Shown in pieces: positions 7,708 through 12,307 of a stretch of DNA of 64,000 nucleotides. The notes below the pieces were generated by a model. It did no database searches, had not been told where the DNA came from, and saw nothing but the letters and a program-made list of their open reading frames with translations. The stretch lies in the NCBI RefSeq assembly GCF_054482595.1, contig NZ_CM137008.1. One strand, written 5' to 3'. Numbering within the stretch: position 1 is the first letter of the stretch; every line of letters starts with the position of its first letter. The position numbers and the translations under genes were made by a program.

Positions 7708-10212
7708 ATGTCACAAATTATCGACCTGACCCTGGACGGCCTGTCCTGCGGTCACTGCGTTAAACGCGTGAAAGAAAGTCTCGAACAGCGCCCGGATGTG
7801 GAACAAGCGGATGTGTCTATCACTGAAGCGCACGTTACCGGGACTGCCAGTGCAGAACAGCTGATCGAAACCATCAAACAAGCGGGTTATGACGCATCTG
7901 TAAGCCACCCAAAGGCTAAACCGCTGGCGGAGTCATCAATCCCGTCGGAAGCACTGACAGCGGTTTCTGAGGCGCTTCCGGCAGCGACCGCCGATGACGA
8001 TGACAGCCAGCAGTTGCTGCTGAGCGGCATGAGCTGCGCCAGCTGTGTCACCCGCGTACAAAATGCGCTGCAAAGCGTACCGGGCGTCACTCAGGCACGG
8101 GTAAACCTGGCGGAGCGTACTGCGCTGGTGATGGGCAGTGCCTCCCCACAAGATTTAGTGCAGGCGGTGGAAAAAGCGGGCTACGGTGCGGAAGCGATTG
8201 AAGATGACGCTAAACGCCGCGAGCGCCAGCAAGAAACCGCCGTAGCTACGATGAAGCGCTTCCGCTGGCAGGCAATTGTTGCACTGGCTGTGGGTATCCC
8301 GGTAATGGTCTGGGGGATGATCGGCGATAACATGATGGTCACCGCTGACAACCGCAGCTTGTGGTTAGTTATCGGCCTGATAACCCTGGCAGTGATGGTT
8401 TTCGCCGGCGGCCATTTTTACCGCAGTGCATGGAAAAGCCTGCTGAACGGTGCAGCGACGATGGATACGCTGGTGGCGCTGGGAACGGGTGTGGCGTGGC
8501 TCTATTCGATGAGCGTCAACCTGTGGCCGCAGTGGTTCCCGATGGAAGCGCGGCATCTTTACTATGAAGCCAGTGCGATGATTATCGGTCTGATTAATCT
8601 CGGCCATATGCTGGAAGCGCGCGCACGTCAGCGTTCTTCTAAGGCGCTGGAGAAATTACTCGATTTAACCCCACCGACGGCGCGCCTGGTTACTGACGAA
8701 GGTGAAAAAAGCGTGCCTCTGGCGGAAGTGCAGCCAGGTATGTTGCTGCGCCTGACGACCGGCGATCGCGTGCCGGTAGATGGCGAGATTACCCAGGGCG
8801 AAGCATGGCTGGATGAAGCGATGCTGACGGGCGAACCAATCCCGCAGCAAAAAGGCGAAGGCGAAAGCGTCCATGCCGGGACAGTGGTACAGGACGGTAG
8901 CGTGCTGTTTCGTGCCAGTGCGGTTGGCAGCCATACCACGCTGTCACGGATCATTCGCATGGTGCGCCAGGCCCAGAGCAGCAAGCCAGAAATCGGTCAG
9001 CTGGCGGATAAAATCTCAGCCGTATTTGTACCTGTGGTGGTGGTGATTGCGCTGGTCAGTGCGGCAATCTGGTACTTCTTTGGTCCGGCACCGCAAATTG
9101 TTTATACCCTGGTGATTGCCACCACGGTACTGATTATCGCCTGTCCGTGTGCGCTGGGGCTGGCGACGCCGATGTCGATTATTTCCGGCGTCGGGCGGGC
9201 GGCTGAGTTTGGCGTGCTGGTGCGGGACGCCGACGCGCTGCAACGCGCCAGTACACTCGATACCGTCGTGTTCGATAAAACCGGGACGCTGACCGAAGGG
9301 AAGCCGCAGGTTGTCGCAGTGAAAACGTTTGCTGATGTTGATGAAGCGCAGGCATTGCGTCTGGCGGCGGCACTGGAGCAAGGTTCCAGCCATCCGCTGG
9401 CACGGGCGATCCTCGATAAAGCAGGTGATATGCAGCTGCCGCAGGTCAACGGTTTCCGCACATTGCGCGGGCTGGGCGTGAGCGGTGAAGCTGAAGGTCA
9501 TGCGTTATTGCTGGGCAATCAGGCGCTGTTAAATGAGCAACAGGTTGGTACCAAAGCTATCGAAGCGGAGATTACTGCTCAGGCATCGCAAGGAGCAACG
9601 CCTGTGCTGCTGGCGATTGACGGGAAAGCAGTAGCCCTGCTGGCTGTACGCGATCCGTTGCGTAGTGATAGCGTGGCGGCGCTGCAACGCCTGCATAAAG
9701 CGGGATATCGTCTGGTGATGTTGACCGGGGATAACCCAACCACCGCCAATGCGATCGCCAAAGAAGCCGGGATTGATGAGGTGATAGCCGGGGTGCTGCC
9801 GGACGGTAAAGCCGAAGCGATTAAACGCCTGCAAAGTGAAGGACGTCAGGTGGCAATGGTGGGCGACGGCATTAACGACGCGCCAGCGCTGGCTCAGGCG
9901 GATGTCGGCATTGCGATGGGTGGCGGCAGTGATGTTGCTATTGAAACCGCGGCGATTACCCTGATGCGCCATAGCCTGATGGGCGTTGCGGATGCGCTCG
10001 CTATTTCCCGCGCAACGCTGCGCAACATGAAGCAGAACCTGCTCGGCGCGTTTATCTACAACAGCATCGGTATTCCGGTTGCCGCCGGTATTTTGTGGCC
10101 GTTTACTGGAACACTGCTTAACCCGGTGGTTGCCGGAGCGGCAATGGCGCTCTCGTCGATTACCGTAGTGAGTAACGCCAACCGGTTGCTGCGGTTTAAA
10201 CCGAAGGAATAA
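7708..10212 (+). CDS. copA: Cu(I)-translocating P1B-type ATPase CopA
   Basis: 834-aa ORF; two N-terminal metal-binding domains (GLSCGHC, GMSCASC), CPC motif (IACPCALG), DKTGTLT phosphorylation site, GDGINDAP hinge. Confidence 0.97.
7908..7919 (+). other. copA: Programmed -1 ribosomal frameshift site in copA giving the short CopA(Z) product
   Basis: Slippery heptamer C_CCA_AAG at 7908-7914 in the copA zero frame (codons 68-69); -1 frame reads CCC AAA GGC TAA, stopping at 7917-7919. Confidence 0.7.
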
Positions 10213-10268
10213 GTACGTCATTGCGGATGCGCTGCTTTAGGGCGGCGCATTTGGCATCGACGCATGAC

Positions 10269-11010
<742 letters not shown>

Positions 11011-11032
11011 GAGATGAAGCGATGTTTTGGCC

Positions 11033-11326
11033 TTACGCGACCTTTTTTGCACGCTCTTCACGGCGTGCCAAATATTCAGCCACTGTTTCAATCCGTCCCA
11101 ATTCTTCCTGGGTACGCATGTTGTTTTCAACTTCCCAAAGATCAACTGCCGCCTGGAGGTTTAGCCAAAAATCGACTGTGGTATCAAAAACTTTCGCCAG
11201 ACGGAATGCCATTTCAGTGGTGAGTTTACGATTATTATTGATCAGTGTACTGACGTTATTACGATGAACATGCAGCAACTCTGCTAACTCATTGATTTTC
11301 AAAGCGAGCGGTTCCAGATTATTCAT
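11033..11326 (-). CDS. ybaQ: XRE/HigA-family HTH DNA-binding protein YbaQ
   Basis: 97-aa ORF with HTH (LHVHRNNVSTLINNNRKLTTEMAFRLAKVF); no toxin-like ORF adjacent. Confidence 0.88.
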   Translation of the reverse strand: MNNLEPLALKINELAELLHVHRNNVSTLINNNRKLTTEMAFRLAKVFDTTVDFWLNLQAAVDLWEVENNMRTQEELGRIETVAEYLARREERAKKVA

Positions 11327-11512
11327 AGAGAAGAATATCTCCGGGTGTCGTCGGTTTTCTTGTTGCCTGTTTCATAGTTTTTAACTGTTGCTTCCCTGTG
11401 AATAGCGATACAAGAACATACTGAATCATACAAACACATTAAACAAGTCCCCAACTCCATTTGCGCCATTCCTCCCCGCGCGCTAGCATGATATTTCACA
11501 AAGGGAGGTCGT

Positions 11513-12307
11513 ATGGATCTGTTGTACCGGGTAAAAACGCTTTGGGCCGCGCTGCGCGGTAATCATTACTCCTGGCCTGCCATCGATATCACCCTCCCCG
11601 GCAATCGCCATTTTCATCTGATTGGCAGTATTCATATGGGTAGCCACGATATGGCTCCCCTGCCCGCCCGTTTGCTCAAAAAGCTCAAAAACGCCGATGC
11701 GCTGATCGTCGAGGCGGATGTTTCCACCAGCGATACGCCTTTTGCTAATTTGCCTGCCTGCGAGGCGCTGGAAGAGCGTATTAGCGAGGAGCAATTACAA
11801 AATCTGCAGCACATTAGCCAGGTGATGGGCATTTCTCCGTCACTCTTTTCTACCCAACCGCTGTGGCAAATCGCGATGGTTCTTCAGGCGACGCAGGCAC
11901 AAAAACTGGGGCTGCGGGCAGAATACGGTATCGATTACCAGTTATTGCAGGCGGCGAAGCAACAACATAAACCCGTGATTGAACTGGAAGGGGCTGAAAA
12001 CCAGATTGCCATGTTGCTCCAGCTCCCTGACAAAGGACTGGCGCTGCTGGACGATACGCTGACCCACTGGCATACCAACGCACGGTTGCTGCAACAAATG
12101 ATGAGCTGGTGGCTGAATGCGCCGCCGCAAAATAATGAAATAACGCTGCCCAATACGTTCAGTCAGTCGCTGTACGATGTGCTGATGCATCAGCGAAATC
12201 TCGCCTGGCGGGATAAATTACGCGCCATGCCGCCGGGGCGATATGTGGTCGCGGTCGGTGCACTACACCTGTATGGAGAAGGGAATTTGCCGCAAATGTT
12301 GCGCTAA
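11513..12307 (+). CDS. ybaP: TraB/GumN-family protein YbaP
   Basis: 264-aa ORF with preceding SD (aaagggaggtcgt ATG); conserved position between ybaQ and ybaK. Confidence 0.88.
   Translation: MDLLYRVKTLWAALRGNHYSWPAIDITLPGNRHFHLIGSIHMGSHDMAPLPARLLKKLKNADALIVEADVSTSDTPFANLPACEALEERISEEQLQNLQHISQVMGISPSLFSTQPLWQIAMVLQATQAQKLGLRAEYGIDYQLLQAAKQQHKPVIELEGAENQIAMLLQLPDKGLALLDDTLTHWHTNARLLQQMMSWWLNAPPQNNEITLPNTFSQSLYDVLMHQRNLAWRDKLRAMPPGRYVVAVGALHLYGEGNLPQMLR

Follow-up and report, generated by a model that had tools for sequence, protein, structure and literature searches.

The copA-ybaP interval of the window, a stretch of 64,000 nucleotides of an Escherichia coli chromosome, is very probably what remains of a type II toxin-antitoxin (TA) module, higB-1/ybaQ, that was integrated in the chromosome and is now in decay, and the locus is most likely functionless. 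Its copy of ybaQ is most probably an inert pseudogene. The genes follow one another in the order copA (7708-10212, + strand), a REP/BIME array, ybaQ (- strand), ybaP (11513-12307, + strand, TraB/GumN family), ybaK and ushA, copA being the convergent and ybaP the divergent neighbour of ybaQ. The present analysis shows the frameshift of ybaQ, the lack of both toxin and operator, the occurrence of intact pairs elsewhere and the conservation of their operator, while the repression of higB-1 and the essentiality of ybaQ in toxin-bearing strains are taken from the literature. That ybaQ is an orphan antitoxin whose higB-1 partner has been lost is already known (Rousset et al. 2020; RASTA-Bacteria 2007), and the sole local addition is the lineage-specific pseudogenisation of ybaQ. 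The importance of the locus beyond its annotation is slight; the main decay steps are already published.

An earlier note, made from the sequence alone, had described a 97-residue helix-turn-helix (HTH) protein of the HigA type. An ATG-to-stop ORF of 97 amino acids does exist at 11033-11326 (- strand) and its family assignment holds, but the real gene is longer and frameshifted. ybaQ normally encodes 113 residues (342 nt), and alignment with the K-12-like and B2 alleles places its start ATG at the equivalent of 11375. The gene (113 codons plus stop) therefore spans 11033-11375 (- strand) and is, at 343 nt, one nucleotide longer than normal. The surplus nucleotide, an A (TATGAATaATCTGG, at about 11319-11320) that the K-12-like and B2 alleles lack, follows codon 18 and creates a premature TAA at 11319-11321. 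The 5' fragment (11319-11375, - strand) comprises codons 1-18 (MKQATRKPTTPGDILLYE) and this stop. A tblastn search recovers YbaQ split over two frames, residues 1-18 at 11375-11322 and residues 20-113 at 11317-11036, and the 97-codon ORF (- strand) consists of residues 20-113 preceded by three out-of-frame codons (MNN). The 97-residue HTH protein is an artefact: the longest ATG-started ORF called in a frameshifted gene. In strain XH990, 100% identical across the whole 1,831-bp locus, PGAP annotates ybaQ as frameshifted. To note, prfB-type sites are the yardstick for judging programmed +1 frameshifting at the GAA-TAA position; this candidate was rejected, as the site lacks both a slippery P-site codon and an internal Shine-Dalgarno sequence at the correct spacing.

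The family of the protein is clear for both forms. The Pfam HTH_3 domain is matched with an E-value of 6.5e-8 by the 97-residue ORF and of 3e-11 by the intact 113-residue form, and the TIGR02607 model (HigA family addiction module antitoxin; curated cutoff of 47.7 bits) with 82.3 and 105.3 bits, respectively, which places both in the HigA family. The shorter form, however, spans only positions 15-80 of the 81 positions of the TIGR02607 model, and the window holds no uninterrupted frame for the whole HTH domain including helix a1, the frame shifting after codon 18. The structure of the 113-residue protein has been solved (PDB ID 2EBY). In the AlphaFold (AF2) model (mean pLDDT of 87.7; block mean of 93 for residues 11-20), helix a1 covers residues 11-23, and the 97-residue ORF lacks residues 1-19, including 9 of the 13 residues of this helix. 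Among 14 homologues, G12, D13, L15, E18 and Y19 are invariant, while Q3, A4, R6, K7, P8 and T9 are nearly so. The product of the 97-residue ORF would thus be non-functional, and the stand-alone regulator contemplated in the earlier note is unlikely for this allele, because the ORF represents just the 3' portion of a frameshifted gene of 113 codons.

Could the 97-residue ORF nevertheless be expressed by reinitiation and act as a stand-alone XRE-type regulator or a residual antitoxin? Its start ATG overlaps the TAA of the 18-codon leader (ATGAATAA), an arrangement in which termination-reinitiation could give rise to a protein shortened at its N-terminus, and this ATG is preceded, at a distance of 12 nt, by a GGAG. 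Helices a2-a5 and those of the C-terminus are preserved in the ORF, its TIGR02607 score is still 82 bits, intact orphan alleles are under purifying selection, and YbaQ was picked as a transcription-factor candidate for ChIP-exo in K-12 (PMC6237786). Such a role is nonetheless improbable: no stretch of the N-terminus is better conserved than the missing residues 1-19, which contain all five invariant positions and form most of the core helix a1 in the model; the gene is a pseudogene according to PGAP and the allele is rare (15-17 of 5,426 genomes); finally, the window offers neither a cognate operator nor a toxin to act on.

The absence of a toxin gene, already remarked on in the earlier note, was borne out by every search. 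No HigB/RelE-like ORF adjoins ybaQ in the window. Searches by tblastn with the cognate HigB-1, run on the entire window as well as on 10200-11520, returned chance matches only (best E-values of 0.2-0.3), and Pfam scans of the small flanking ORFs and of the ORFs within the BIME array gave no toxin match. The toxin gene placed immediately upstream in a single operon, as in HigBA modules, is therefore missing from the window, and the pseudogene fragments that had been expected as a possibility between 10200 and 11520 are not found there with the cognate HigB-1 as query: the segment is replaced. The 186 bp that had been given for the spacer to the divergent ybaP are correct when counted from the ATG of the 97-codon ORF to the ybaP start (11513), but the true ybaQ-ybaP spacer measures 137 bp, since the full ybaQ starts at 11375. 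Alignment indicates that, in both the window and K-12, 77 bp (11376-11452, - strand) stand in for 410 bp of the toxin-bearing haplotype, which comprise the promoter, the operator, higB-1 and a spacer. The remaining, ybaP-proximal 60 bp (11453-11512) are common to all haplotypes and their end, ...GGCGCAAATGGAGTT, forms a shared left junction. The same 77-bp filler is found in K-12-like strains and at loci L004, L005 and L009.

The filler probably carries the promoter of the orphan ybaQ, and a hand-read candidate, TTGGGG-N18-TATGAT, may be proposed in the ybaP-ybaQ spacer; scans of this spacer for promoters, terminators and inverted repeats returned nothing at the thresholds of the tools. The possibility that the filler is a decayed 3' end of the toxin gene was considered and rejected: MAFFT aligns it to the toxin segment with ~50% identity, and local and anchored global alignments are no better than those of shuffled sequences. 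Likewise, the mutual similarity of the fillers of the window type, the toxin type and the L022 type is not significant. As the filler resembles the toxin segment no more than shuffled sequence does and neither tblastn nor Pfam detects any HigB fragment, the toxin segment must have been cut out or replaced and did not decay in situ.

A minimum of four unrelated sequences begin at exactly the same junction (...GGCGCAAATGGAGTT) beside the ybaP upstream region. Besides the higB-1 module and the 77-bp filler, they include a derivative with ybaQ deleted and, at L022 (strain DETEC-P649), a GC-rich filler of 429 bp extending to the copA stop. This junction lies at 11452/11453 in the window, L001:2578, L021:1583 and L022:1579.

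Intact pairs are found at the same position in other strains. In SCU-116, the interval from ybaP to ybaQ holds a 100-residue ORF whose annotation is RelE/ParE-family toxin. This ORF is situated 35 bp upstream of ybaQ and matches PF05015 (HigB-like toxin) over its full length with an E-value of 8e-32; the intact toxin-ybaQ pair between ybaP and copA is seen at locus L001. Of 5,426 E. coli genomes, 1,267 (23%), among them ATCC 11775, CFT073 and ST131 strains, contain the toxin segment and 4,833 (89%) contain ybaQ. By difference of these two counts, ~3,560 genomes possess an orphan ybaQ, while ~590 have no ybaQ. The suggestion of the earlier note that ybaQ could be the remnant of a TA module is thereby upheld, and the pairing of ybaQ orthologues with a toxin in relatives, on which it had made this suggestion depend, extends beyond this locus. 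A scan of species-representative genomes identified 17 loci, 13 of which are located away from copA-ybaP, and a HigB-1-like ORF lies directly upstream of the YbaQ homologue at all 13, one of the toxins being frameshifted. These loci belong to Trabulsiella, Citrobacter, Enterobacter, Kluyvera, Sodalis and Erwinia, as well as to Escherichia sp. ESNIH1, Escherichia sp. E1V33 (as a second copy), E. albertii and a Caldilineaceae MAG. Neither ybaP nor copA flanks any of them, and the pair thus behaves like a mobile module. Plasmids also carry it: 92 plasmids of PLSDB encode a toxin 80% identical to HigB-1, and in the one inspected (pF8704-2_2, L023) a YbaQ-like antitoxin, 78% identical, adjoins the toxin behind the same operator. 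The top-listed matches among these plasmids are from Salmonella and E. coli and measure ~75-95 kb; a further ~2,100 plasmids encode more distant toxin homologues.

A single motif, aTGCAC-TTGnGCACnGTGCa-N3-4-GTGCr-nTAnnAT, precedes the toxin at each of the 14 chromosomal loci as well as on the plasmid examined. In it, nested palindromes overlap a -35 box (TTGnGC) and a -10 box (TAnnAT), and the DNA flanking it is unrelated between loci. The motif is the putative autoregulatory site expected of higB-1/ybaQ, and the candidate YbaQ operator sequence reads ATGCACTTGCGCACAGTGCA. The window has no match to it with up to 3 mismatches allowed, and thus no palindromic operator of this kind overlapping an operon promoter, the other feature of HigBA modules. 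At the E. albertii NBRC 107761 locus (L019:2560-2640), the first part of the toxin homologue includes a tandem run of ATGACCA (ATGACCAATGACCAATGACCAATGACCAATGACC), a short way past the conserved operator; this run may be a slippage-prone tract.

A history of the locus can be proposed from these observations, in which the order of events, the module first and the loss of the toxin afterwards, is deduced. The intact module would be of the HigBA type with the toxin gene first, a single promoter driving higB-1 and then ybaQ. This promoter would contain the conserved palindromic operator (TGCAC-TTGnGCACnGTGCa-N3-4-GTGCr-nTAnnAT), and YbaQ, through its XRE-type HTH, would both repress it and neutralise the HigB-like toxin. 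In a first decay step, the 410 bp of promoter, operator and higB-1 would have been replaced by 77 bp of unrelated sequence, leaving an orphan ybaQ, the state of K-12 and of roughly two thirds of E. coli. In a second step, the insertion of a single A after codon 18 would have ended the ybaQ frame after 18 codons, with only the 97-codon ORF left, devoid of most of helix a1. Loss of the antitoxin would be tolerated because no toxin remains to be neutralised. Other lineages exhibit further damage: small deletions affect the 3' end of ybaQ at copA-ybaP in a cryptic Escherichia lineage (L009:3270-3330), whose genome (Escherichia sp. E1V33, L009/L010) harbors a separate intact pair elsewhere with an antitoxin 79% identical to YbaQ, and ybaQ is deleted in L021-type genomes. 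The locus thus represents a within-species TA decay series, from the intact pair, through the excision of toxin and operator, to an antitoxin that is frameshifted, truncated or deleted.

The main steps of this series have been documented by Rousset et al. (bioRxiv 10.1101/2020.05.25.114553), who found ybaQ to be essential only in 5 of 18 strains, B2 and F strains with higB-1 upstream. The same authors described the YbaQ motif in the higB-1 promoter, the derepression and overexpression of higB-1 upon ybaQ knockdown in S88, the absence of higB-1 from most phylogroups including K-12, with retention of ybaQ, and the loss of both genes in phylogroup D. The counts and haplotypes obtained here agree with their account. 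The B2/F higB-1/ybaQ module occupies the same locus and has the same antitoxin gene, three residues differing once the frameshift is corrected; the window, in contrast, lacks the toxin, the promoter and the operator, and its ybaQ is frameshifted in addition, a further decay step apparently outside their account. YbaQ had been reported in 2007 as the first solitary antitoxin of E. coli (RASTA-Bacteria, PMC2374986). It was solitary there as it is here, but it was assigned to a VapB profile with no partner, whereas the partner is now recognised as HigB-like.

Several modules of known structure can be compared with higB-1/ybaQ. E. coli and Proteus vulgaris HigBA (PDB IDs 2ICP/2ICT and 4MCX) share the same kind of HigA-type HTH antitoxin (E-values of 3e-9 and 3e-6) and the inverted gene order with the toxin first. 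They belong to different subfamilies, however, YbaQ possessing extra C-terminal helices (residues 86-112 in the model), and K-12 HigB (YgjN) is encoded at a locus unrelated to ybaQ. The closest solved toxin to HigB-1 is 6F8S_B (E-value of 3e-14), with 6F8S_A as a related XRE antitoxin (E-value of 3e-10). These structures, PDB IDs 6F8S and 6F8H, we take to be GraTA of Pseudomonas putida. The toxin-first order and the HigB-like and HigA-like folds are common to both systems, but their sequences are distant, their operators differ, and GraTA is complete and functional, unlike the toxin-less pseudogene of the window.

The intact orphan alleles have a different appearance. K-12 and B2 ybaQ differ by 5 synonymous and no nonsynonymous changes, K-12 and L005 ybaQ by 10 synonymous and 3 nonsynonymous ones (dN/dS of ~0.09). 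Such alleles look constrained on this evidence, and orphan ybaQ may therefore have a function that was lost in the lineage of the window, rather than being junk everywhere. Why it stays under purifying selection in most strains is a question already raised in the literature. One conceivable answer, which we consider a long shot, is that intact orphan YbaQ is kept as an "anti-addiction" factor against plasmid HigB-1-like toxins, neutralising them or repressing their genes via the shared operator. If so, frameshifted lineages such as that of the window would have lost protection against plasmid toxins. In a weaker variant, the reinitiated 97-residue fragment may keep a regulatory role.

On the other side of ybaQ, the REP array downstream of the gene is as the earlier note had reported. 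Tandem Repeats Finder (TRF) delineates it at 10269-11011, between the copA and ybaQ stops, as 7.4 copies of a 101-bp period with 97% matches; it lies 21 bp downstream of ybaQ and amounts to ~8 units when a partial unit from ~10220 is counted. Tandem units with inverted REP palindromes between the convergent copA and ybaQ identify it as a BIME/REP array. Between 10222 and 11007, 7 units score above the Rfam gathering threshold for naRNA4 (RF02564), a REP-derived nucleoid-associated RNA, on the - strand, which is also the ybaQ strand. In UTAK-1 (H83, NZ_CP157165.1), an IS621 (IS110-like) transposase is annotated inside the array, at the equivalent of ~10220-11010.

The number of units varies from 0 to 8 among E. 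coli genomes, and in a spread sample of 60 genomes it follows the toxin. All 13 toxin-bearing loci possess a REP-less ybaQ-copA spacer of 57 bp, a hairpin terminator, and their ybaQ stop is TAG, while each of the 39 toxin-less ybaQ loci contains at least one unit (1, 2, 3 as in K-12, 4, or 8 as in the window) and has TAA as the ybaQ stop. This association, together with the start of the REP-containing segment exactly at the third base of the ybaQ stop (TAG in one form, TAA in the other), would fit the suggestion that the array is the mark left by the rearrangement in which the toxin was lost. Several pieces of evidence make this very improbable: the toxin site lies upstream of ybaQ, towards ybaP, and the array downstream, on opposite sides of the gene; outside the 60-genome sample, locus L005 is toxin-less with an intact ybaQ and no REP, and L004 has a single REP; at L021, the first 30 bp of the filler remain, fused to the final 21 nt of ybaQ, beyond which comes the REP-less spacer; and the copy number ranges from 1 to 8 among toxin-less strains. 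Since L021 retains the start of the filler, the ybaQ end and the REP-less spacer, it is a ybaQ deletion that arose from a toxin-less, REP-less ancestor. Based on L005, L021, L004 and the copy-number range, the loss of the toxin was one event and the gain or amplification of REP units another, the two being linked by descent; the association is best read as linkage within phylogroups, and the adjacency of the array does not imply a causal link. The stop codons compared are at 11033-11035 in the window (TAA, with REP) and at L001:3328-3330 (TAG, without REP), and the REP-containing segment takes over a portion of the right arm in the hairpin of the copA/ybaQ terminator.

The insertion in ybaQ is shared with other sequenced strains. 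A 40-nt probe able to seed on the insertion allele only yielded 15 exact and 2 one-mismatch matches among 5,426 complete E. coli genomes; the strains concerned differ in host, country and laboratory of origin. The change, AATATC to AATAATC, is outside any long homopolymer. A second probe, across S40N and A43T, matched 20 genomes, which delimit the rare allele that bears the insertion. A sequencing or assembly error masking an intact 113-residue orphan antitoxin as in K-12 might be imagined, single-base indels being a common assembly error and ybaQ being otherwise undamaged, but it is hardly credible given the presence of the insertion in these independent genomes, its sequence context and its confinement to so rare an allele. 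With 15-17 independent complete genomes sharing it, the insertion is a genuine rare mutation of the lineage. The nearest intact allele is that of L004, from which the ybaQ of the window differs, the insertion aside, by one synonymous and one nonsynonymous change. The window allele additionally has D24A. An argument for relaxed selection from D24A and A43T was weakened by the finding that both changes also occur in the intact L004 allele.
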